Shown: positions 8,422 to 21,635 of the stretch, one piece after another
Position numbering within the stretch: the first letter of the stretch is position 1
Layout of the letters: each line of letters begins with the position of its first letter
Source: Silvanigrellaceae bacterium
GTDB lineage: Bacteria > Bdellovibrionota_B > Oligoflexia > Silvanigrellales > Silvanigrellaceae
Length of the DNA stretch: 40,688 nucleotides
NCBI GenBank assembly: GCA_049423385.1
Contig: JBMSQQ010000023.1
Span: 1 to 40,688, forward strand
Direction of reading: 5' to 3'
Notes under the pieces: generated by a model
Told to the model about the DNA's origin: nothing
The model's input: only the letters and a program-made list of their open reading frames with translations
Database searches by the model: none
Made by a program: the position numbers and the translations under genes

Positions 8422-9543
8422 CTAGAGTCGTCGCGCAATGATGGTAAATTCGTGTCTGTTGTGAAACAGGTGTCTTGAGGCGACGATTTCAAGGGAGCTC
8501 TGCTTGAAACAATTCGATACGAGGTCGAGTGCATTCTTCGCAGCATTGAAGTCGGGAAGCTTGAGTGTGAACACTATCAAGGCATTCTGTCTCATGGTTG
8601 ATCCAAGTTTTCCGACGACTGCAGCAGCGTTTGTATACGGGCCGTTCATGTCTGACAGAAGTGCATCAAACTTGGAAGCATCGTTCAGCTCTTGGGCGTT
8701 GATTCTGAGATGAGTCAAGCCCTTGTGCTGCGAAACACCGGGTGACATTTCGGCGAGATCCACAGCAGTGACTTGTGCGCCCCATTCGAGCAGGCATTGG
8801 GTCATGCCACCAGGCGCCGCACCGAGTTCCAACCAATGTGGAAAATGTTTTTGGCTGATACTTAATTCATCCAGTAGTGCGAGAACTTCGAGAATTTTGC
8901 CACCGGCTCGGCTGGGTAGTTCTTGAACCGGGTTTGCCGACTTGGACAGGTATCCCAAGCCGCCTGGAAGAGCAGAGCCCGTGTCGAGTCTGTTTCTGGA
9001 AAGGCCTGCATAAAGTCCCTTTTTATCAATCAATGCGGTCAGCACGGTCTGCGAAGCGTCACTGGTGCGATGTTGCGAGCGGAGTTGGAGAAGTCTTCCT
9101 TTCACCCCAATTGCAATTCTCTTCAATTCGGGGGTGGTCGAAAGAACCTCGAGGAATTCACCATTTGAGCCGAATTTGCGATGCAGTCCTTGTGCCGCTT
9201 TTTCGACAAATCCATCGATCGAAGGCTTTGTTGGCCATTGGTGTTCAAGCGGAGTGACCCATCTCGGGAAAACTGTCGAACGCAATTGACCCGATGAAAG
9301 ATTTTCATTTGTTCGCATGATGCAAAAATCGTTGCCGAGTTGTTCAATTTCGCAGGTTCCCTGCTCTGCAATGTCTGGCAAGAAGTCATTCATCCAGACC
9401 TGACGACTCTCGTGGCTGATCTGAAGCATCCAATTTCTGCAATCTCGGCCTGCTTCGCTCAGTCGTGAGTACTCGATTTGGGAATCAACTGTTTCGTCGA
9501 ACTTTGGTCCCAATTTGTTCTTTTTCGCCTGACTGTCCGCCAA
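8422..9543 (-). CDS. rlmM: RlmM-like (FtsJ/RrmJ-fold) SAM-dependent rRNA 2'-O-methyltransferase (TTG start)
   Basis: PSRAGGKILE, LELGAAPGG, VTAVD, LLSDMN, FTLKLP and HLFHNRHE follow the RlmM C-terminal motif order; AGGAG RBS before TTG. N-terminal half is divergent, so the target is not proven. Confidence 0.75.
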   Translation of the reverse strand: MADSQAKKNKLGPKFDETVDSQIEYSRLSEAGRDCRNWMLQISHESRQVWMNDFLPDIAEQGTCEIEQLGNDFCIMRTNENLSSGQLRSTVFPRWVTPLEHQWPTKPSIDGFVEKAAQGLHRKFGSNGEFLEVLSTTPELKRIAIGVKGRLLQLRSQHRTSDASQTVLTALIDKKGLYAGLSRNRLDTGSALPGGLGYLSKSANPVQELPSRAGGKILEVLALLDELSISQKHFPHWLELGAAPGGMTQCLLEWGAQVTAVDLAEMSPGVSQHKGLTHLRINAQELNDASKFDALLSDMNGPYTNAAAVVGKLGSTMRQNALIVFTLKLPDFNAAKNALDLVSNCFKQSSLEIVASRHLFHNRHEFTIIARRL

Positions 9544-9631: not shown

Positions 9632-11200
9632 TCAAACAAAAAGATTGCCGCATGTCTTTTCAACTGATTTGCGAAATTCTCCGGTTTTGATGGCACTGGC
9701 AACGAGTTCGATGTCGTTTGCCAGTGCCCTGTCTGTTTCCATGAATTCCGAGTGTTGACGAACGAATTCGTACGCACTTCTGACTCCTGCTCCACCCTGG
9801 AGAGGCTTATGGAATTCAAGGCCTTGAGCGGCAGCGAGTGCTTCTATTGCCAACACCCGGGCCGTGTTGTCGAGAACCCTCTGAAGTTTGAGTGCTGCCG
9901 TCATGCCCATGCTGACGTGATCTTCCTGCTCGGCAGAGGTTGGAATGCTGTCTACAGAAGCAGGATGGCAGTGAACCTTGTTTTCACTGACAAGGGATGC
10001 TGCAACAACCTGAGGGATCATGAAACCTGAGTTGAGACCGGAGTCCTTCATGAGGAAGGCAGGCAGTCCGCTCATGTGAGGATTCACCAATTTGTCGATA
10101 CGTCGTTCGGAGATATTGGCTATTTCTGCCATTCCGATGGCCAAATAATCGAGAACCATGGCGACCGGCTCACCATGAAAGTTGCCACCGCTGAGAATTT
10201 CATCGGAATCAGAAAAAACCAACGGGTTGTCCGTGCTGGAGTTGGCCTCCGTCATAAGCGTATCAAGAACGTGTTTGAAGCAATTTCGGGCGGCTCCGTG
10301 GACCTGCGGAGCGCAACGAAACGAGTAAGGATCCTGAACCTTCTTGCATCCCGCATGACTCAATCGCAAGCCGTCGTCTGCCAATACCTTGCGCATATTC
10401 CCAGCAGCAACGGATTGCCCGGAGTGCGGGCGCACGCGCTGAATTTCGTCCCTGAATGCCGTCGCTGTTCCCAACGTTGCATCCAGAGACATCGCCACCG
10501 TGATATCTGCGCTGCATAGAAGTTGTGCAGCAGTGTCGCATGCTAGCAGGCCAATCGCAGTCATTACCTGCGTACCATTGATGAGAGACAATCCTTCTTT
10601 GGCTTCCGGAAGGAGTGCTGCTCTGCCCATATTGGAAAGAACCACGGCAGTGGGGTGAACCTTTGATTCCCATTCCACTTGCCCTTCGCCAATCAGGGCA
10701 AGAGCAAGATGTGCCAAGGGAGCCAAGTCACCGCATGCGCCGACCGAACCTTGGCTCGGAATAACGGGATGAATCCGGTTGTTCAGGAAAAACTCCATTT
10801 GTCTGAGAGTCGCTTCACGAACTCCGGAATTGCCGCGAAGCATCGTTTGCAGGCGAAGAACCATCAGCCCCCGGACGACCTCGGTCGGCAGAGGTTGTCC
10901 AACCCCGCAGGCGTGCGAGCGGATTAGATTCAATTGCAACTGACTGAGCTGTTCCGGGGCAATCCTGACACCTGCGAGTGCTCCAAAACCAGTGTTGATT
11001 CCGTAGAATGTCTCTCCACTCTTGACTCTTGACTCAACGCACCTTCTCGCGTCTTCGACCTTTGCAATTGCATTCGAATCCAGCGAAACGCGCGCTCCAT
11101 ATCGGGCAACATCGACAAATTGATCCAGGGTCAGTGAACAGCCATCCAACTGAATCAGTTCGTGGAATGGGCGGTTCTGTGAAGAAGAGCTGTGTGCCAT
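9632..11200 (-). CDS. hutH: Histidine ammonia-lyase (histidase) with Ala-Cys-Gly MIO triad
   Basis: YGINTGFG, NLIRSHACGVG (HAL-type SH), GSVGACGDLAPLAH, KEGLSLINGTQ, QDPYSFRCAPQVHG, GGNFHGEP, QEDHVSMG. ATG 11200 has an AGAGGA RBS. Confidence 0.93.
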   Translation of the reverse strand: MAHSSSSQNRPFHELIQLDGCSLTLDQFVDVARYGARVSLDSNAIAKVEDARRCVESRVKSGETFYGINTGFGALAGVRIAPEQLSQLQLNLIRSHACGVGQPLPTEVVRGLMVLRLQTMLRGNSGVREATLRQMEFFLNNRIHPVIPSQGSVGACGDLAPLAHLALALIGEGQVEWESKVHPTAVVLSNMGRAALLPEAKEGLSLINGTQVMTAIGLLACDTAAQLLCSADITVAMSLDATLGTATAFRDEIQRVRPHSGQSVAAGNMRKVLADDGLRLSHAGCKKVQDPYSFRCAPQVHGAARNCFKHVLDTLMTEANSSTDNPLVFSDSDEILSGGNFHGEPVAMVLDYLAIGMAEIANISERRIDKLVNPHMSGLPAFLMKDSGLNSGFMIPQVVAASLVSENKVHCHPASVDSIPTSAEQEDHVSMGMTAALKLQRVLDNTARVLAIEALAAAQGLEFHKPLQGGAGVRSAYEFVRQHSEFMETDRALANDIELVASAIKTGEFRKSVEKTCGNLFV

Positions 11201-11210
11201 GGCGTCCTCT

Positions 11211-11238
11211 TTGAAGTTTCTTTGGGTACGGATAAACT
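11211..11238 (+). promoter_or_regulatory. Candidate sigma70-type promoter for the 11267-16237 gene pair
   Basis: TTGAAG (11211-16), 16 nt, TAAACT (11233-38), in the 66-bp divergent gap; AGGGGA RBS precedes ATG 11267. Confidence 0.35.
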
Positions 11239-11266
11239 CTTTAAACACATCGTCAGGGGACATACC

Positions 11267-13381
11267 ATGGCCTACAGGTCGCGCTCAAAATTTACGCCGG
11301 GAAGCGGGGTACTCGCTTTCTTTGAGCAGGTTTCGCGGTACGTGTCATTGTCCGTTGTAGGATGGGTGGTTGTCTCCCTGTTTTTTATACTGTTCGTTGC
11401 AGATGGTAAAATCACCGATTCTTTTGATTTGCACCTCGTCAAAGGCATCTTCAGCAGCTTCAGGCTGTTTTGGACAGCAATGCTGATTCTTGCGTTCAAT
11501 GGTGTTTTGGGTGGATTGATAGCGCTGCCTTCTGCTTTGGTTCTGCTTATTTGCCGGCAATACCTCGATTACGAGTCCGGTCGCATTTCGCGCCGGGGAG
11601 GTGCCTGGAAAGTCAAACTCGTGCGAAGCCTGCCTGTCTCGGTATTGCTGACGAGCCATGCGTTGGTTCTGTTCGCCAATCTGATCTCTGCACCGCAGTT
11701 GACCCGCGATTGGTTCAAGGAAGACAGTAGATTTGCCTCCACGTTGACCGCGGCACATCATGTGATGGGTTCTTTGACCCGAAAATCCTATGCCGAAATC
11801 AAGAATGAGACGAAAAGTGAAAACTCAGCCACGAAGACTGCCAGCAAGAATCGTCAGGGTGAAGCTCGTCGGCTTCATTTGATTATGATTCCAGCAGATT
11901 TGATGGAGAACGATGATTTCAAGGCAGAGCAATCCAAGTTGAAGGACTCCGGACGGGTTTCGTTTGTGATCTCTGGTTCAAACATTATTGAGCAGCTGGA
12001 TTCGTTGTTTGTAAACTTGAAGGGGCCATTGGCGAATCTGCTTGGCAAGACCCTCCATGCTGCAAATGACTATGGACAAATCCAAAGCAAACCAGATGCA
12101 CAGGTGTTGGTCTCGATTTCTCCTCAACTTCGATTTGGGCGTCAGCCAGTGGGATTGGGTACAGACTCACTCGCGACCTTAAAAGACAAGATGATGATCT
12201 ATGAAGCTCAGAGAAGGCTTCTTCTGTCGCAGGTCCAAAATTTTGGTGTGATTCGACTTTTCGATGGTGTTCCGTTTGTCGGACAGAATATAGACTGGCT
12301 TGAACTTGTTTCTGATGATGTTGCGAGAATCAGATTGAGTGGCATGCAAATGTCCAGAGCCAGTAAGGATTCGAACAGCGTTGCTGTGATTCAACTGGAC
12401 AGCCTGGAAAATCGTTTTTCCAGCGTTCAGTCTCCCTTTCGTCCCAAGGGCTGGCCATTGAGAATTTCCAATCATGAAAGACGCTTGATTATTAAAAATA
12501 TTTTCCGGGAATTGGCTCAGTACATTTACGACAACGCCAGCAGTGAGCGGGATTTCTGGTTGATGCTTCCATACACGGACGAGAAACGAACCAAAGCAGT
12601 GAGCTTTGCAGTTTTTAAAGAAGGCTCCGGATTCATGGAGAGCCTTCTTGAAAAAAATCCTGTCGGTTTTGGCGTGCTGAACGACGAGCTTGGTACTCAA
12701 TTGGCCCGATTTCTTTCGGCAGCAGCAATTGTTCCCGATGCCCCGCTTGCCAAGGAAAGCAAACATGTCGCCGCGAATGACTCGTCACGCATGAGATGCT
12801 TTGATACCGAAGTTGATCCTGCAGGTTCAAATTTGCAATTCCAATCGTCGGATTTGCGGGAAAGAAGCCTAGGTGAGCTCTTGAATTCACTTATCCAGAT
12901 GCCGGAGAGTGATCTTCACTTCCTGAGTCGAGGGGCTCTCAATCTGATCGCCAGAGAACCAGGATTCGGATTTCTCTGTCGTACCGAGAATCAGTCGATA
13001 AACGAGGTCTACCTTCTGAAGTACCAATCGGGTGAGATGGCGATGATTCGACCTGTGCAAAACGGGATATTGTCGTCGATTCTCCTTTCCAGGCAGCATT
13101 CGGAAAATGAATCTGGTTCAAAATGGTCGTCGGCAAAGTTGGCTCAGTACGGATCACCAAACAGCAATTCGTCTGACCCGGATGATATTGCGATAAAACG
13201 CGATGTGCTTTCTGATTTCGTCGTATACCAGCTTCTGCCGAATTCGGTTCATGAAAATGAACTCAATGAACCTTCGGATTGGAGATTGATGGATCAACGG
13301 GAATCACAGATGTTTTTTGCAAAGTTTGAGCATGAAACCCTGCGTGTACTCGAAACTTTTGCGCGAGCGAGGATTCGTTGA
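11267..13381 (+). CDS. Membrane-anchored hypothetical protein, probable highly degenerate sulfatase/alkaline-phosphatase-fold domain
   Basis: About 3 N-terminal hydrophobic segments, then a soluble alpha/beta region whose pattern (LHLIMIPAD, VAVIQLDSL, DFWLMLPY, LNDELGTQLARFL) weakly parallels the sulfatase core. Start chosen by RBS and to avoid overlap with hutH. Confidence 0.6.
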   Translation: MAYRSRSKFTPGSGVLAFFEQVSRYVSLSVVGWVVVSLFFILFVADGKITDSFDLHLVKGIFSSFRLFWTAMLILAFNGVLGGLIALPSALVLLICRQYLDYESGRISRRGGAWKVKLVRSLPVSVLLTSHALVLFANLISAPQLTRDWFKEDSRFASTLTAAHHVMGSLTRKSYAEIKNETKSENSATKTASKNRQGEARRLHLIMIPADLMENDDFKAEQSKLKDSGRVSFVISGSNIIEQLDSLFVNLKGPLANLLGKTLHAANDYGQIQSKPDAQVLVSISPQLRFGRQPVGLGTDSLATLKDKMMIYEAQRRLLLSQVQNFGVIRLFDGVPFVGQNIDWLELVSDDVARIRLSGMQMSRASKDSNSVAVIQLDSLENRFSSVQSPFRPKGWPLRISNHERRLIIKNIFRELAQYIYDNASSERDFWLMLPYTDEKRTKAVSFAVFKEGSGFMESLLEKNPVGFGVLNDELGTQLARFLSAAAIVPDAPLAKESKHVAANDSSRMRCFDTEVDPAGSNLQFQSSDLRERSLGELLNSLIQMPESDLHFLSRGALNLIAREPGFGFLCRTENQSINEVYLLKYQSGEMAMIRPVQNGILSSILLSRQHSENESGSKWSSAKLAQYGSPNSNSSDPDDIAIKRDVLSDFVVYQLLPNSVHENELNEPSDWRLMDQRESQMFFAKFEHETLRVLETFARARIR

Positions 13382-16237
13382 ATGTCACGTCGCAATAATT
13401 TTAGATTCAATTTTTTTGTCACGTCGGCTGGCGCGGTTTTTTTGTTCGTGGCCGCAGCCGCATGGCTTGTGTCACGATTTCCGTGGCCAGTTTTTCATGT
13501 TGATTTTGCAGCAACGCGTGATTCGACTTTCATCGAAAATTGGCCACTTCCCGCTCTCGAGGAGGACAAGCAGGAGCGAAAAAAATTGCGCCGGTTTCCC
13601 AAATCGGAACAGCAGCGGCGTTTGGGAATCATTATGCGACGCATGGAATTCCTCAATGTTCCGATATTTGATTTTTTTCTGGACGAGGGTGTTCAGCTCA
13701 TCAGTCCCGAACTTCCGGTGGGAACGTCTCCATCGGCACCTTTGATTTGGCCGTCGATGAAGTCGAGGCGCAGGATCGGGACTGAAGATTCTTCTTTTCG
13801 TGACCTCAGTTACGTCGTGCTTCCATCAAGCTTCGGGGCACAGTGTGTCGAGGGGATTAACATTTTCGGCGGAGAAGAGATAAGGATCGGTTTGCCGCAA
13901 GCAAAGAACAAAAGAAGTATTGTCTTCAACGTCATACCTCTCACGCCGTCCAGTCTCAGGGCTTGGCTTGGACAATTCAGCTGGGCGAGGCAATTCAATG
14001 ATTCGGATGTCAACCGGATGCAATCGATAACCATTCCGGTCAACGATGCTGCTGCAACTTCGTTGAGATTGAGCATGGGTGCCGGAAGTTTGCTTTTGAC
14101 ATCCGCGTTTATTGCTCAATGGGACAGGTCAGGTCGATTGCCTGTGCAGGTCGGAACACAAAGTCTGGTCTGGCGCTCTGCCAATGAAAAAGTCACGGCT
14201 GAAAGTCAGGAAGAATCAGAGATTTCGTCTGACGAGGCGGTCGAGGAGCCGGGAAGTGCTCCCGGCGTGCAGGGAACTCCCGCTGCGCAACAAGCAGCTC
14301 AAGCGCCAAAGCCACCAGACACCACAGAAGCAAGCCCGCAGAAGACAAAGTCCAGCTCGACAGATGAGCTTTTGGATCCTGAGTCTGTCAAATACAATCC
14401 GGTCGTTGGCGTTTCGGGCCCGAGTTCGGTCGCTCTTGGATACAATGTGACTTTATTGCAGCTCGATCCTCTTTTGAATGATGTTCTTGCGGACGAGACG
14501 ATGTCTGCTGCATTGGCCCCACGCCTGAATGCTTTCTTGAAGCAGTCACTCAATTTGCCAGTTCAATTTCCAAACACGACATCAGCCGCTGATTTGTTCC
14601 AGCACACCATTGTCAGGCAGAATGGCGAGTTCATTCCGGTCGACCTTCCCATATTGACACGCGACCTTATTTCGGGTGCCGGTGTTTTCAACCTTTACCA
14701 GGATTTCAGGAACTATGGCTACAAAGTTGTCAGTTTTGCCAACCCCAAAGCATTGTCTCTTCCTTCCGCTCTGGCTCTGGGGAGTGAGGTTCCAAAAATC
14801 GAGGGTCGTTGGTTGGACAGCAATGATTGGAATTTTTTGGCTCGCCGCAAACAGCTGGATCAACTGAATGAACCCGTGACAGGACTTGAAGCCATTTTCA
14901 AGAATGAACAATCATCTCTTGTCCAGTCCATTTCGGATAATGACTTCTCTCGATTTGCAGAGATGCTTGAAGGGCTCGAACTGCAAAGTGATTCCGTTCC
15001 GGACTGGCGAGCAAATGAGCTTGCGGTTATCAATTCAAATAAGGTTTATCTGCCGAGAGTCGTCGATGGCTTCCAGAAATGGATCAAGGACAACAGTCAG
15101 GCACGATTTTTTGCGCACCTTTACCTGAACAACGAGGACCATTCTCTGCGTCCGTCGTTCAAGGATTTTATCAAGGTTCTCAAATACAAGAAGATTGGGG
15201 CGATAGCTTTTCCGGGAGTTGCCGACCGGTGGGCGCGAATCGTCATGTTGGACCGCGTCTTTGGTTACATCATTGATGCGTTGGTTGCTCGGAGAACCTA
15301 CCATAGGACCGTCATCGCTGTGATGTTGCCCGCTCGTTCCGACTCCAGAAAACCCGGAGCAGGGCGTGTCATGATCAGCGTTCCAGGACTACTGTCCAGG
15401 AAGTTCACATCAGACAAACCGCTCGCATTTGATGATGCAATAGCCTCGATTTCCCAAACTGTGGGTGTCCAGTTGAGCAATTATGACAGTGAAGGGCGAC
15501 TGGTTTTTAGAGGTCGGGGAATTGAAAAGGAAGTAGTCAAGGAAAAGCCGACCGAGCCCGGTTCAAATTCTAATGGACAGGTCAAAGTGGTGGCAGCAGA
15601 GGTTCCAAAGTCGGATCAACTGGGAGAAGCGCGTACTCAGCCAGCTCAGCCAGCTCAGTCAACTCAGTCGACCGTTACACCCACAACCGCAATTCCCGTT
15701 CAGCAGGTGAGCCGATACCGGATGATTGTTTTGCCTCGAGCCGCGGGTTGTCAGCCGTTTGAATGGGCCGCCTCGTCCGCCTATTTTGGTCTTAAGTCGA
15801 GTCAGCCAATCGTTGAGGAACCAGCTCCACGCGGACGCGTGATCCGGGTCTTTCCTTGTGGCTTGCGGGATCAGGTGATCGAATTGAGTTGGTTCCAGGC
15901 CCATTCCGGTGCCGATCAATCCAATTTTATAGCAGGCAACTTGCCGATTTGGCTTGGTGGATATTTCAGGCTGAATCAGCCTCTCGCGAAGTCAAGTGTC
16001 GCACTCGATGCACCCATGTTCTTGGTCGGACCTCAGGCGTTGCCATTTGATTCACTGCCACTGCGCTTGCAGAAGTTCTCCGCTTCGGAGGTACCGCAAT
16101 TGTTTGATTTCGGTGCCAAACAATCGCCTGAGAGAGAGACGCTTGCGAGGGTTTTGAACTTCAGTTCACAGGTTCATGGTCCCCAAATGTCGGCTCGGAC
16201 GTTGGTCTATTTTTTCAGGGAGCCGGTACGTCGATAA
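13382..16237 (+). CDS. Large exported or membrane-anchored protein with degenerate sulfatase-fold domain
   Basis: One N-terminal hydrophobic segment. The core (about 14440-15470) has NVTLLQLD, APRLNAF, FRNYGYKVVSF, WIKDNSQARFFAHLYL, LDRVFGYIIDAL...RTVIAV, VMISVPG and DDAIASISQTVGV in sulfatase order, but no C/S-x-P-x-R and no SDHG. Abuts the upstream stop (TGA-ATG). Confidence 0.7.
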   Translation: MSRRNNFRFNFFVTSAGAVFLFVAAAAWLVSRFPWPVFHVDFAATRDSTFIENWPLPALEEDKQERKKLRRFPKSEQQRRLGIIMRRMEFLNVPIFDFFLDEGVQLISPELPVGTSPSAPLIWPSMKSRRRIGTEDSSFRDLSYVVLPSSFGAQCVEGINIFGGEEIRIGLPQAKNKRSIVFNVIPLTPSSLRAWLGQFSWARQFNDSDVNRMQSITIPVNDAAATSLRLSMGAGSLLLTSAFIAQWDRSGRLPVQVGTQSLVWRSANEKVTAESQEESEISSDEAVEEPGSAPGVQGTPAAQQAAQAPKPPDTTEASPQKTKSSSTDELLDPESVKYNPVVGVSGPSSVALGYNVTLLQLDPLLNDVLADETMSAALAPRLNAFLKQSLNLPVQFPNTTSAADLFQHTIVRQNGEFIPVDLPILTRDLISGAGVFNLYQDFRNYGYKVVSFANPKALSLPSALALGSEVPKIEGRWLDSNDWNFLARRKQLDQLNEPVTGLEAIFKNEQSSLVQSISDNDFSRFAEMLEGLELQSDSVPDWRANELAVINSNKVYLPRVVDGFQKWIKDNSQARFFAHLYLNNEDHSLRPSFKDFIKVLKYKKIGAIAFPGVADRWARIVMLDRVFGYIIDALVARRTYHRTVIAVMLPARSDSRKPGAGRVMISVPGLLSRKFTSDKPLAFDDAIASISQTVGVQLSNYDSEGRLVFRGRGIEKEVVKEKPTEPGSNSNGQVKVVAAEVPKSDQLGEARTQPAQPAQSTQSTVTPTTAIPVQQVSRYRMIVLPRAAGCQPFEWAASSAYFGLKSSQPIVEEPAPRGRVIRVFPCGLRDQVIELSWFQAHSGADQSNFIAGNLPIWLGGYFRLNQPLAKSSVALDAPMFLVGPQALPFDSLPLRLQKFSASEVPQLFDFGAKQSPERETLARVLNFSSQVHGPQMSARTLVYFFREPVRR
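15635..15670 (+). repeat. In-frame imperfect 9-bp tandem repeat, 4 copies (TQP-AQP-AQS-TQS)
   Basis: ACTCAGCCA GCTCAGCCA GCTCAGTCA ACTCAGTCG in a low-complexity linker. Confidence 0.8.
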
Positions 16238-17104: not shown

Positions 17105-18958
17105 TCAGTCCACGGATGCCACGTAGTCATGAATTGCCTTGCGGAAGATTTCCACGCGGCCAACGCTTTGTGCGTACGCATCTTCTGCCTTTCCTGGCAA
17201 AGACTGGGTGCAAACGGATATGTAGAACTTTATCTTTGGTTCAGTTCCACTGGGCCGCATGGAAATCTTGCTGCCGTCATTCAATTCAAGTTGAATGACG
17301 TCGGACTTTGGCAACGAATCAAAGGTTGCAGCTGCTGAAAAAGAACCATTGTTGTTCAGGCGCTTGGATTGTTGCTGGTAGTCGTAAATGGCCGTGATAC
17401 CCGTACCTGCGAACATGTTCAGAGGATTGTTGCGCATTTTGTTCATCAGTCGGCCGATGCGTCGTGAGCCTTCCTCACCTTCCAGATCGACGGTGATGAG
17501 ATCCTCCTGCCATGCGCCATACTGACCAAAGAGCGACAAGAGTTTTTGACAATGGGTGATTCCATTTTCCTTGAATGAAGCAGACATCTCCACAGCCTGG
17601 CAAAGCGCGCCAATTCCATCTTTGTCGCGCACATAGTCACCTGGCATAAAACCAAAGCTCTCTTCGGTGCCAAAAAGGTATTTGCGATCCTTGAGTCCTT
17701 TGCGTTCCCAATCGTTCACGACTCCGGCGATCCATTTGAAGCCTGTGAGTGTGTCCAGGATCTCAATCTCATAGTTTTTGCAGATTCGAGAATGAAGATC
17801 TGAAGTCACGATGGTTTTGATGACTTTGTGTTCTGGCTTGAGAAGTCCAAGCCTCTTGCGGGTTGAAAGAATATAGTCGATCAATAGCGCACCTGTCTGG
17901 TTGCCATTCAGAAATACATAATCGCCAAACGCCTGATTTTTGAAACTCCCTTTGGCTGCAACTGGGTCACGGACAACGAGTGCAAGACGATCGGAGTCCG
18001 GATCCGTAGCAAGAACGATATCGGCCTTTTTTTGGGATGCTTGCGCAATTGCCAATGCCAGTGCGAGCGGTTCCTCTGGATTCGGTTTTTTGACCGTCGG
18101 GAAATTTCCATCGGGCTTGGCCTGCTCGGCCACGATGTACAGATTCTTGTAGCCCCAATCTGTCAACGCACGCTGCGTTGGTGCTGCTCCCGTGCCGTGC
18201 AAGGGAGTGTAAACAACGCTGACATCCTTCTTGAGGTTTGGCTCCAGTTGAAGCTCTTTCACCTTGGCAAAGTACGCGTTGACCGTTTCTTCCGGAACAG
18301 TTTTGATGAGTCCCTGTTTGACCGCTGTTTCCATGGTCATGAATTTTGCTTGCTTGTATTCCGTGACAGCAAACACCTCCGCGAGAATAGCCTTGTCATG
18401 CGGTGGCGTGATTTGTGCGCCATCGTCCCAATATACTTTGTAGCCATTGTATTGGGGTGGATTGTGGCTTGCTGTGATGCAGAGTCCGCCAATGCAATTG
18501 AGATTGCGCACGGAGAAAGAAAGACAGGGAGTTGTTTGAATTTCGTTGAACAGATAAACCGGAATGCCATTTGCCGCCAGAACGCCTGAAGCCTGTTCCG
18601 CGAAATAGCGAGAGGTGAGGCGGCTGTCATAAGCGATGACCACGCCTCTTTTCGCTTGTTCATTGCCTTGCTTGAGGATGTAGTTCGAAAAACCCTGGGT
18701 TGCCTTTCGCACAATCGGCCCGTTCATTCGATTGCTGCCGGCGCCAACAACTCCCCGCAGTCCGCCCGTTCCGAACTCCAACTCTCGCCAAAAACGCTCG
18801 CGCAAATCGTCCGTGCTGCCACGCTTTACGAGGTCAAGTATTTCGCTTTTGGAGTCCGACTCGATTGTTGGGTCCTGCAACCACAGTTCCAGTCGGGGGA
18901 ATGCTTCACCTAGAACTGGTTTGAGAGATTCCGGCAGCTGTTGGTTTTGATGTGTCAT
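17105..18958 (-). CDS. Phosphoglucomutase/phosphomannomutase family phospho-sugar mutase
   Basis: LEFGTGGLRG, ITASHNP (phospho-Ser), DPDSDR (metal loop), TLTGFKWI, GTEESFG, RPSGTEPKIKFY. Confidence 0.95.
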   Translation of the reverse strand: MTHQNQQLPESLKPVLGEAFPRLELWLQDPTIESDSKSEILDLVKRGSTDDLRERFWRELEFGTGGLRGVVGAGSNRMNGPIVRKATQGFSNYILKQGNEQAKRGVVIAYDSRLTSRYFAEQASGVLAANGIPVYLFNEIQTTPCLSFSVRNLNCIGGLCITASHNPPQYNGYKVYWDDGAQITPPHDKAILAEVFAVTEYKQAKFMTMETAVKQGLIKTVPEETVNAYFAKVKELQLEPNLKKDVSVVYTPLHGTGAAPTQRALTDWGYKNLYIVAEQAKPDGNFPTVKKPNPEEPLALALAIAQASQKKADIVLATDPDSDRLALVVRDPVAAKGSFKNQAFGDYVFLNGNQTGALLIDYILSTRKRLGLLKPEHKVIKTIVTSDLHSRICKNYEIEILDTLTGFKWIAGVVNDWERKGLKDRKYLFGTEESFGFMPGDYVRDKDGIGALCQAVEMSASFKENGITHCQKLLSLFGQYGAWQEDLITVDLEGEEGSRRIGRLMNKMRNNPLNMFAGTGITAIYDYQQQSKRLNNNGSFSAAATFDSLPKSDVIQLELNDGSKISMRPSGTEPKIKFYISVCTQSLPGKAEDAYAQSVGRVEIFRKAIHDYVASVD

Positions 18959-20346
18959 TTGACCTGCCCTTTTTTAAGATCGGTGATGTTGTCGCTGATT
19001 GAATTCAAAAACTTTTGAATGTTTCTCCGGGTGTATGAATCCGTGTCCGGATAGCGTGACAAAATGCTTTCGAGTATCTGTTTGCATTGTGACAGGCTGT
19101 CAAGTTTGCCTTGTGTGTCACCAATGATGGCCACCTTTTTATAAATTTCAGAAGCTCTTCTTCGCATGTCCTTGACGTGAGCCTCGGACGCCTCGCGCCT
19201 CAGACCGCGGGTTTTTTCACTCTTGTTTGCTTCCGAAAGATTGTCGAGGATCTCGACTGCGTCACCTGGCTTTCCATCATTCAATGCCATTTTGGCGAGT
19301 TGAATGGCCTTGTCGGCTGAAAGATCAAAACGTTCAGAGGAGTTGAGCACCGCCGATGGGGTGAGAGTGTTGCATTGATTGCTCGTCGGGTTGGTGGAGG
19401 TGTCAACGAGCGTGGTTTTGCCTGAGCCCGCAGCGCCCGTTATCGAATCGATGCGGAGCTGATGCGGTCTGCTCGGGAAAAGGCGGCGGATCTTTATGGT
19501 TTCTTCTTCAAGAGCAGCGGTGTCTGCCTTCACCCTGATTTCCTCCAGGGTTGAAAGTTGACTCGCAAATGCAAGCTCCAATGCAGAAAACAAACGCAGG
19601 CGGGATGCTAGAAGCTTGTCGCGGGCTCCGCCTGGCGGAAGCTGCGAAAGCAATTCGTCCATCTTGATCAATGCTGCGGCTTGTGTTGATGCCTCCGAAA
19701 GGCTCGAACGAATTTCCTTGAGGAGTGTGCTTTGAGTGCCGGTGAGTAGAGGCTCCAGGTTTTGCAAATCATTTCTGAGTGCAGGGCCTGAAACAAAACT
19801 CATGAACTGCAAGGCAGAGACGCTGATGGATTTCGCAAACGACGCGCGGGCAGCGTTGCTGTCTCCTGCGGCCGCAAAACTTTCGCCCTTCAATTGTTCA
19901 ATAAAAGCAGAGCTGAACAGCGGCGATTCGAGTCTCAATGCCTGCTCAGCGGAGTTCAAAAATTTCTTCAGTGCTTCGGAGTCCTGTGGAGATTTCTGTT
20001 GGGCGCACCACGACGTTGCCAGAATAACACTGTTGGCATAGCTCTCGGGAGGCGCGATGAGTTGTGCTTCCAAGGCTCGAATTGCAGGACAGTCTCGTTT
20101 TGCGAGCGCAGCTTCAAATTGCGTCACAAAGGGAAGTGAGTTGTTGCTGCCAGAAGTTTTTCCGCCCGATTCTGTGCCTTGATTTTCTTTTTTATCAATT
20201 TTTGAATTTGTATCGGGACCAGACTGCTGCGTGTTGTTGGTGGTGCTGCAAGCTGAAACCGCGCTTGCCATCGCCACGAAAAACGAAACTCGTGAGAAAT
20301 TGCGGAGCAGGTCAATTGCGCACTGGCGGACGGGAACTATCTTCAT
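18955..20346 (-). CDS. Putative lipoprotein, alpha-helical (TPR-like) repeats
   Basis: Hydrophobic stretch ending in lipobox VSA-C, S/T/N/G-rich tether, amphipathic helical segments; stop overlaps the mutase start (ATGA). Confidence 0.7.
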   Translation of the reverse strand: MKIVPVRQCAIDLLRNFSRVSFFVAMASAVSACSTTNNTQQSGPDTNSKIDKKENQGTESGGKTSGSNNSLPFVTQFEAALAKRDCPAIRALEAQLIAPPESYANSVILATSWCAQQKSPQDSEALKKFLNSAEQALRLESPLFSSAFIEQLKGESFAAAGDSNAARASFAKSISVSALQFMSFVSGPALRNDLQNLEPLLTGTQSTLLKEIRSSLSEASTQAAALIKMDELLSQLPPGGARDKLLASRLRLFSALELAFASQLSTLEEIRVKADTAALEEETIKIRRLFPSRPHQLRIDSITGAAGSGKTTLVDTSTNPTSNQCNTLTPSAVLNSSERFDLSADKAIQLAKMALNDGKPGDAVEILDNLSEANKSEKTRGLRREASEAHVKDMRRRASEIYKKVAIIGDTQGKLDSLSQCKQILESILSRYPDTDSYTRRNIQKFLNSISDNITDLKKGQVK

Positions 20347-20387: not shown

Positions 20388-21635
20388 TTACCAGTGGCCA
20401 GACATTCCAAGCAAGTATCGGCGGTCTTTTGTGACTCGGCCGTCAGTGAAAATGGCAGCTTCGTAGGAACTGAAGTCCAAACTGAAGTTGGGCAAGGGAA
20501 GCGAAATTCCCCAGGATGTTCGGGTGTCGTTCAAGCCTGCACGCAGTGACAACGAATGGTTGTTGTTTGCGCTGCCTAAAAATATCTCAACTCCAGCATG
20601 GGTGAGTTGGTTGATATTGACGTCCCTGAAACCATAGTTCTTGCCGCCGTAGGTGATTGGCAATGGGTAAATATCCCCCGAAATCTTCAAGTTCACCCTC
20701 TGTGATGCAATGCGGATCCTCGGAACAATGCTGACGCCCAAGCGCACTTCGGTGGGATCCAATTGAGTTCCCGGCAATTCTTCGTTCACATCCCCGGTTC
20801 GTTTTGTGCCACAAATGGATTGGTTTTTTCCTGTCGCGGGGTTCACGAAATTGTCGACACAACCTGTAGGGATGTTCAAAATCGACAGGCCAAAGCTGGG
20901 CAGCCAAAAATCTCCTGCGGTCGCGATAAATCCTGCATCCACACTTGTTGCGGACGTTTTGTGCTGTTCAGACTTCAATGCCCCAAAAAGCCCCTTTGAG
21001 CTGATCATGTCAGCGAGACTGTGCGTTGCGAGCGAGCTCCAACGCAGGTTGGGTCTGAGGGAAAGACCAAGTGCCACTGCACCTGAACGGGACGAAATGC
21101 TCATATTCATTGCAGCTGTAGCCGTTGTTTCTGTCATGACAGTGCGGCTCAAGCCATCTTCCTGCGCCGGGTTTGCCACCAGATATGATCTCAGCGGGAG
21201 ACCAAGAAAAAAGGTTGGGCCTCCGCGTTCACCCATTGCCAGCCATGGGAACATCTGGGTTTCCAGATAATTCCGTTCTGTGACCGACTGACTTCCGAAA
21301 CTCTGGAGCCACTCGGATGGCTTCAGGGTTTTGCCTTTCAGTGTCGACATGGTCGTCCTGTTTCCACCCAGGGAAAGTCCAGGACCTTCAATGGAGTCTA
21401 TCGCAGCGCGACTGCGCGGATGGCGTGTTTTGTTGAGTGCGGCAGGATTGGCGTAGAGTGCGTCTTCGTTCAAGGCATGGGCTGTCTGGCTTCCGCCAAG
21501 GGCTCGAGTATAAGGAGAACTCCAGGTATTGTTCCACTCCAGAGCTGACGTTGTGGTTTCGTCTGCCCGGCTTTGCGAGGACAGACAAAATGCAACATAC
21601 AGAATCGGCAAATTGGACTTCCTGAGTACTTTCAT
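20388..21635 (-). CDS. Putative outer-membrane beta-barrel, FadL/PorV/TraF-like
   Basis: Signal peptide; TRALGGSQTAHALNEDALYANPAAL resembles the GGAxxA...AxxxNPAxL N-terminus of these barrels; alternating beta-strand patterns; terminal Trp; GGAGG RBS. Confidence 0.7.
   Translation of the reverse strand: MKVLRKSNLPILYVAFCLSSQSRADETTTSALEWNNTWSSPYTRALGGSQTAHALNEDALYANPAALNKTRHPRSRAAIDSIEGPGLSLGGNRTTMSTLKGKTLKPSEWLQSFGSQSVTERNYLETQMFPWLAMGERGGPTFFLGLPLRSYLVANPAQEDGLSRTVMTETTATAAMNMSISSRSGAVALGLSLRPNLRWSSLATHSLADMISSKGLFGALKSEQHKTSATSVDAGFIATAGDFWLPSFGLSILNIPTGCVDNFVNPATGKNQSICGTKRTGDVNEELPGTQLDPTEVRLGVSIVPRIRIASQRVNLKISGDIYPLPITYGGKNYGFRDVNINQLTHAGVEIFLGSANNNHSLSLRAGLNDTRTSWGISLPLPNFSLDFSSYEAAIFTDGRVTKDRRYLLGMSGHW

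Follow-up and report, generated by a model that had tools for sequence, protein, structure and literature searches.

The 4-methylidene-imidazole-5-one (MIO) cofactor of histidine, phenylalanine and tyrosine ammonia-lyases (HAL, PAL and TAL) forms autocatalytically from an X-Ser-Gly tripeptide, through cyclisation and dehydration of the central serine. An engineered Pseudomonas putida HAL with cysteine in place of this serine (S143C) reportedly became fully active after post-translational conversion, in work by Langer, Lieber and Retey (Biochemistry, 1994). Here we analysed a stretch of 40,688 nucleotides (the window; positions 1 to 40,688 of contig JBMSQQ010000023.1, assembly GCA_049423385.1) from a Silvanigrellaceae bacterium, in which the histidine ammonia-lyase gene, hutH, codes for Ala-Cys-Gly (ACG) at the place of the textbook Ala-Ser-Gly (ASG). 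Reviews treat the central serine of the triad as invariant (PMC9002059). A 2026 preprint describes ASG as a requirement of every ammonia-lyase yet characterised (10.64898/2026.04.22.720169), and a 2024 HAL paper says so of the sequences it compares. A literature search that left subscription journals mostly outside its scope returned no paper on a natural ACG triad. The triad described below is a real, clade-wide natural variant of the textbook cofactor precursor, not found described in the literature searched.

The hutH coding sequence occupies positions 9632..11200 on the minus strand (522 amino acids plus stop), as supported by its open reading frame (ORF), PF00221, TIGR01225 and an AlphaFold2 (AF2) model. 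Counted from ATG 11200, the minus-strand codons GCA (10738-10736), TGC (10735-10733) and GGT (10732-10730) give Ala155-Cys156-Gly157; this reading and numbering had been put forward in the original prediction, and codons and translation both bear it out. The 522-residue translation (P0001) contains PSQGSVGACGDLAPLAH around the triad, that is GSVG-A-C-G-DLAPL, and a longer excerpt of the same region reads IPSQGSVGACGDLAPLAH. The three MIO-precursor codons GCA-TGC-GGT (10730..10738, minus strand) align with Ala142-Ser143-Gly144 of P. putida HAL, and in a HMMER alignment to 1gkm Cys156 was aligned to Ser143, with an offset of 13 that is constant over this part. At the Cys156 codon itself (10733..10735, minus strand), where TGC replaces the canonical serine codon, orthologues use TGC or TGT and the ASG orthologues of the same clade AGT or AGC. 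An upstream in-frame ATG at 11263 could add an N-terminal extension of 21 codons (11201..11263, minus strand), giving the 543-residue version of the ORF list; the start at ATG 11200 fits the close homologue clusters, which are mostly of 521-522 amino acids, with a few of 532.

The bases at the triad were compared with Logan contigs (assemblies, not raw reads) over the region 10400-11100, using four public runs from two studies, one labelled freshwater and the other marine; one of the runs is possibly the source of this DNA. Contigs of all four runs covered 10730-10738 and none differed from the window at the triad, so that no serine codon was found at the position of Cys156. This held also for run X6, whose contigs lacked coverage of 10472-10615 yet covered the triad. 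The sole difference within 10400-11100 was a T>C change at 10544, a third codon position, in the contigs of two runs of one study. We regard it as natural strain variation in hutH, near a triad that is unchanged.

Apart from its central cysteine, P0001 answers to the description of a HAL. It matched PF00221 over profile positions 1-466 of 466 (6.7e-189) and exceeded the cut-offs of the hutH equivalog TIGR01225 (667.8 bits vs 539.15) and of NF006871 (688.6 bits vs 524); identity as a tyrosine aminomutase, a TAL or a PAL was rejected, the score of each of these models lying below its own cut-off. Its nearest solved relatives are true HALs, those of Trypanosoma cruzi (6v6h, 9.2e-131) and P. putida (~1e-120), at 43-44% identity over the full length. 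The AF2 model of P0001 (predicted local distance difference test, pLDDT, 93.4; predicted template modelling score, pTM, 0.93) gave as top Foldseek matches the P. putida HAL structures 1eb4 and 1b8f, with template modelling (TM) scores of 0.92/0.95 and a root-mean-square deviation of 1.6 Å. The HAL fold, a full-length lyase domain, the selectivity dyad and the catalytic residues are thus all present. The dyad, Ser95-His96 (10913..10918, minus strand), lies within the RSHA motif at residue 94 and aligns with Ser82-His83 of P. putida, the pair that marks histidine selectivity. Also kept are Tyr66, Asn208, Gln289, Tyr292, Arg295, Phe341, Glu426 and Asp158, the counterparts of P. putida Y53, N195, Q277, Y280, R283, F329, E414 and D145. 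In an alignment of 62 homologues S95, H96, N208, Q289, Y292, R295, F341, E426 and D158 were invariant and Y66 was at least 90% conserved; the flanking GSVG and DLAPL, together with the alanine and glycine of the triad, were likewise invariant. Position 156 was the lone varying position of the triad, occupied exclusively by S or C. The statement of the original prediction that the other HAL motifs are intact therefore stands for every residue checked, by the alignment to 1gkm and by that of the 62 homologues.

These comparisons place the window protein closest to the P. putida (1b8f, 1gkm, 1eb4) and T. cruzi (6v6h) enzymes in full-length identity, fold, Ser-His dyad and the checked catalytic and cyclisation-assisting residues; it differs from both in having cysteine, not serine, as the central residue of the MIO tripeptide. 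Since the absence of the textbook ASG tripeptide is the sole departure from the features expected of HutH, we classed the gene as a variant of the HutH family rather than as a plain member. Its database relatives carry the names Silvanigrellales, Fluviispira, Oligoflexus and Bdellovibrionales, by which the organism belongs to an uncultured genus of Silvanigrellales-type bacteria. A separate feature of the AF2 model, otherwise very confident, is a dip in confidence over residues 421-430 (mean pLDDT 64).

The ACG triad extends well beyond the window. A pattern search of the family found it in 18 of 33 genomes and in 5 of 8 genera, while a reversed-pattern control of the same search gave no matches. 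By genus, it was present in 13/13 genomes of the window's own genus (g1, window genome included), in 2/2 of g3 and in the single genomes of g6, g7 and g8 (1/1 each); the pattern did not occur in g4 (0/1), g2 (0/1) or g5 (0/13). Within the window's genus the residue was cysteine in 14/14 sequences from the 13 genomes, and among 30 loci collected from 41 related genomes every member of the genus had ACG. The original prediction had allowed for a singleton surrounded by ASG relatives, which these counts contradict, and had raised the question of whether GACGD marks a clade using both cysteine codons: among the 19 ACG sequences of the family the codon was TGC in 10 and TGT in 9. Even the closest relative of the window gene, 89% identical, has TGT where the window has TGC. 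Since the same cysteine recurs across the genus and in five further genomes of the family, encoded by TGC and TGT alike, a sequencing or assembly error is excluded. At the level of the class, 19 of 131 genomes matched ACG, namely the 18 genomes of the family plus one whose gene belongs to another type. Among the 120 best-matching database clusters, 51 had ACG and 69 had ASG; the listed matches P0002-P0032 (65-100% identity) were all ACG, and the first ASG sequence was P0033, at 65%. In one genome of the genus (G005) two ACG hutH pieces with TGC were seen, at C330:4160-4816 and C337:1090-2601; both cover a common stretch of hutH, with small differences between them, which could reflect a strain mixture or a duplication in the assembly.

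We asked how the serine and cysteine forms are related. In the window, hutH lies between an FtsJ-like methyltransferase gene, its downstream neighbour (8422..9543, minus strand; PF01728, 1.6e-08), and a divergent upstream ORF of 729 amino acids (11192..13381, plus strand), which has no Pfam match and keeps its syntenic place throughout the genus (45-87% identity). Both genes flank hutH in every locus of the genus that includes flanking sequence. The same flanking genes accompany hutH in other genera of the family, beside ACG (G020, G014) and ASG (G015, G023) orthologues alike. Because these neighbours are common to ACG and ASG loci, serine and cysteine alternate in orthologues at one locus. 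Trees gave a similar picture. In a 49-row tree, which includes ACG rows chosen from a species-wide scan and is not an unbiased sample, the family formed a clade of 20 rows (100% by the Shimodaira-Hasegawa-like approximate likelihood ratio test, SH-aLRT) with 17 ACG and 3 ASG members, next to a sister clade of 11 rows, all ASG. In a FastTree of 119 rows, built from the best database matches with the trait residue masked, a clade of 81 rows held 49 ACG and 32 ASG sequences interleaved, requiring a minimum of 9 changes; branches with good support make at least 3 serine/cysteine changes within this clade unavoidable. In the same tree the subclade to which the window protein belongs (24 rows) was ACG throughout.

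The gene is under constraint. The closest pair within the genus had a dN (nonsynonymous divergence) of 0.061 and a dS (synonymous divergence) of 2.1; the resulting ratio of 0.03 points to strong purifying selection on hutH. In most pairs of the genus dS was saturated; the cysteine has been retained across the genus despite this saturation, with synonymous turnover between TGC and TGT. No co-variation of active-site columns with the serine/cysteine state was found in the family alignment. Compensatory changes were considered at columns 176, 181, 263, 267 and 283, which split ACG from ASG rows, and were rejected: these columns vary within both groups, none belongs to the active site, and we attribute the split to phylogenetic noise.

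Genus g5, in which the ACG pattern was lacking, stands apart in another respect. Seven of its genomes (G016, G021, G022, G024, G041, G045 and G047; loci L156-L159 and L169-L171) were seen to carry a different type of hutH, about 45% identical to that of the window. This type, carried by most g5 genomes, has ASG with TCN codons and branches away from the family clade; only G023, G042 and G043 of g5 have the family-type hutH, there with an AGY serine. The pattern suggests, from the sequences, that hutH has been replaced or horizontally acquired within the family.

The codons used at the central position point to a possible path between the two serine sets. Cysteine codons (TGY) are one step from both TCN and AGY. 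The two serine codon sets are disjoint, and a switch between them takes two substitutions, as set out in PMC6872785. In the sister clade 10 rows had a TCN serine codon and one row had AGT. The family clade held 17 TGY and 5 AGY rows (G015, G013, G023, G042 and G043) and no TCN at all. Step-matrix parsimony on a tree of 44 rows needed 6 steps with TGY as the root state of the family clade, 7 with TCN and 8 with AGY; reading the root as TGY implies three later changes from TGY to AGY. This suggests that cysteine may be ancestral in this hutH lineage, in which case it would have served for a long time as a functional link from the TCN to the AGY set. Cysteine would then be a tolerated state, derived most likely from a TCN serine and followed by several reversions to an AGY serine. 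Two points tell against a cysteine ancestor: its margin in parsimony is just 1-2 steps, and the basal forks of the tree are poorly supported.

The ACG triad is also found far from the family. A species-wide scan with the back-translated motif, using one genome per species (185,579 species), located ACG in at least 120 other species genomes; the 120 loci listed, among which the family's own genomes do not figure, are all HAL-family genes (blastp against P0001, E <=1.7e-22). The original prediction thus underestimated how frequent the variant is. Most of these loci, 107 of the 120 listed (range L031-L150), belong to a deep branch that we call PM-type, with the signature C-x-K-GSVGACGDL-[AS]-PM-[SA]-Q and hosts in Bacteroidota, Ignavibacteria, Acidobacteriota/Aminicenantes, Thermoplasmatota, Eubacteriales and others. 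From the sequences, ACG appears to be the usual state of this branch. Four of its members were scored against TIGR01225 and came out at or near the hutH cut-off, two above and two below it, and the closest solved relative of the branch is the T. acidophilum HAL 7tqr. The window protein shares with this branch the ACG triad and the superfamily, but is only 35-41% identical to PM-type proteins and is of the canonical 'PLAH' type. Assignment of the window protein to the PM-type branch was rejected: it has no such signature, and a branch with 100% SH-aLRT separates it from the five PM-type rows. Judged by its sequences, the window's lineage is one that gained its cysteine independently of the PM-type branch, within its own family. 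The other 13 of the 120 listed loci are of the canonical 'PL' type and scattered over lineages, and the window's lineage stands apart from them too. One of these 13 is the hutH of a cultured gammaproteobacterium, Aliidiomarina taiwanensis AIT1 (L082, NZ_PIPQ01000009.1), a canonical ACG gene that scored 690.8 bits against TIGR01225 and that groups on the trees with the second hutH type of genus g5. In a genome of the same class as the window but of another family, the best HAL match (G029:C35:49776-51287) was a PM-type ACG gene, 38% identical; both types of ACG gene therefore occur in the class.

What, then, does the cysteine do? The window genome has no other candidate for the histidase function: hutH was the sole HAL-family match in it (183 contigs, 90.6% complete). 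The next gene of the pathway, hutU, was detected above its cut-off (833.7 bits) on contig C97, where it adjoins a hutI-like gene scoring 285.7 bits against a cut-off of 298. hutU was present in 25/25 genomes of the family searched, and in one of them (G018) hutU is followed on its contig, in the same orientation, by an ACG hutH that begins 48 bases further on. We consider it likely that the gene codes for a single functional HutH, an ordinary histidase whose MIO is made from Cys156 with loss of H2S. Sequence, conservation, orthology, selection and pathway context are matters of observation here; from them we infer cofactor formation, H2S loss and activity. The cofactor would form autocatalytically from Ala155-Cys156-Gly157. 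The nitrogen of Gly157 would attack the carbonyl of Ala155 in the backbone cyclisation, with loss of water as in canonical HAL, and the exocyclic methylidene would arise as Cys156 gives off H2S in a beta-elimination, the step at which the serine of canonical HAL gives off water. Neither the mature cofactor nor the reaction, from L-histidine to urocanate and ammonia, with the product passing to HutU and HutI, would differ from those of the ASG enzymes. The engineered S143C enzyme of P. putida resembles the window protein in having Ala-Cys-Gly at the same aligned position, with conversion as reported above. It is a laboratory point mutant, whereas the cysteine of the window is natural, fixed in the genus, present in 5 of 8 genera of the family and encoded by both codons.

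Several observations weigh against this reading. The AF2 model loses confidence over the triad loop (residues 151-160, mean pLDDT 77), in a model that cannot represent the cofactor, and no characterised protein from any ACG lineage was found in the literature searched. In the 90.6% complete genome hutF was not found (the cut-off being 413 bits, its two weak matches scored 30 and 19.7), ftcD gave no match, and for hutG there were arginase-family matches only, all sub-threshold, the hutG-like one reaching 173 bits against a cut-off of 229; the final step of the Hut pathway is thus not clearly present. Moreover, hutH in the window lies outside any hut operon. Compared with the bacterial HutH system, the genome does have hutU and a hutI-like gene, but hutH stands apart from both.

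A more far-reaching proposal is that the cysteine is not neutral. MIO maturation would then be gated by redox state or kinetically, because an oxidised thiol cannot eliminate, and histidine catabolism would be switched post-translationally, with one H2S released per subunit; the lineage would in addition offer the first natural crossing from TCN to AGY of an 'invariant' cofactor-forming serine by way of a functional intermediate. We regard this combination as rather unlikely. The narrower claim that Cys156 is no silent stand-in, so that maturation of the genome's only histidase depends on rate or redox state, or part of the protein keeps a modified, non-canonical cofactor, is in our view unlikely as well. 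A preference for cysteine would fit its retention in all 14 sequences of the genus despite saturated synonymous sites, and the separate, large PM-type branch (107 of 120 listed loci) appears to fix ACG. Against it, serine and cysteine have been swapped repeatedly among syntenic orthologues with no co-varying active-site change, which has a near-neutral look. Selection for cysteine was not accepted on the strength of the 14/14 retention: only one specific and rare transversion, from TGY to AGY, would reveal a change to serine, and not to see it in a single genus says little in favour of a preference.

It is very improbable that no MIO is formed and that Cys156 persists as an unmodified cysteine. 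The protein would in that case be an inactive relic, or else a MIO-less lyase like ergothionase or histidine-betaine lyase, acting on a substrate with a better leaving group. MIO-less trimethylammonia-lyases do exist in the superfamily and are often annotated as HAL, as two reports describe (10.1101/2025.08.13.670108; 10.64898/2026.04.22.720169), and the fold of the window protein also matches ergothionase 6s7j (TM 0.91-0.95). However, identity to ergothionase 6s7j is 28% (8.8e-60), compared with 43-44% to the true HALs (E ~1e-120 to 1e-131), and P0001 passes the hutH equivalog cut-off. According to the same reports, ergothionase and the Shewanella histidine betaine lyase have the HAL fold but lack the whole MIO motif and act on trimethylammonium substrates, whereas the window protein departs from that motif only at the central residue and keeps everything else around the triad. 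It keeps Gly157, the cyclisation partner, as well as Asp158 and Phe341, the positions mutated in 1gk3 (D145A) and in 1gk2/1eb4 (F329G/A), and ASG enzymes are among its orthologues and interleave with it on the trees. The Shewanella lyases are described there as clustering with a periplasmic flavocytochrome or urocanate reductase, unlike hutH of the window, where a Pfam scan of eleven neighbouring ORFs, four of them without any match, gave no match to a cytochrome or reductase family of this kind. A relic is excluded by the dN/dS of 0.03. Finally, although TGC is one substitution from AGC or TCC and the 183 contigs of the genome come from a metagenome-type assembly, the chance that the codon arose as an artefact of sequencing, assembly or binning is negligible, given concordant contigs from four runs in two studies, cysteine at the triad in 18/33 genomes of the family with both codons in use, and ACG in 51 of the best 120 database clusters, every listed match P0002-P0032 among them.

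These results indicate that nature uses cysteine stably at the central MIO position, at the scale of a family and in an otherwise canonical HutH. The surprise is moderate, because the chemistry could be predicted from the P. putida mutant reported in 1994. Enzymologists gain from the variant a set of naturally occurring enzymes for work on how MIO arises when H2S is eliminated, and A. taiwanensis AIT1 provides a cultured carrier of a canonical ACG gene. Where motif-based annotation or a screen for MIO enzymes insists on X-Ser-Gly, genuine enzymes will be overlooked or wrongly labelled. The codons, for their part, suggest a clear case from nature in which an essential serine passes from one codon set to the other through a viable cysteine intermediate.

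The 729-aa ORF is adjoined by an ORF of 951 amino acids (13382-16237, plus strand) without a Pfam match, and two further ORFs on the minus strand, 18955-20346 (463 aa) and 20388-21635 (415 aa), gave no Pfam match at E <=1e-5. hutH itself lies downstream of a secY-adk-rpsD-rpoA cluster, and the matches in the scan of the eleven neighbouring ORFs were to this ribosomal/secY/adk/rpoA cluster, the FtsJ-like methyltransferase, a short-chain dehydrogenase and a phosphoglucomutase.

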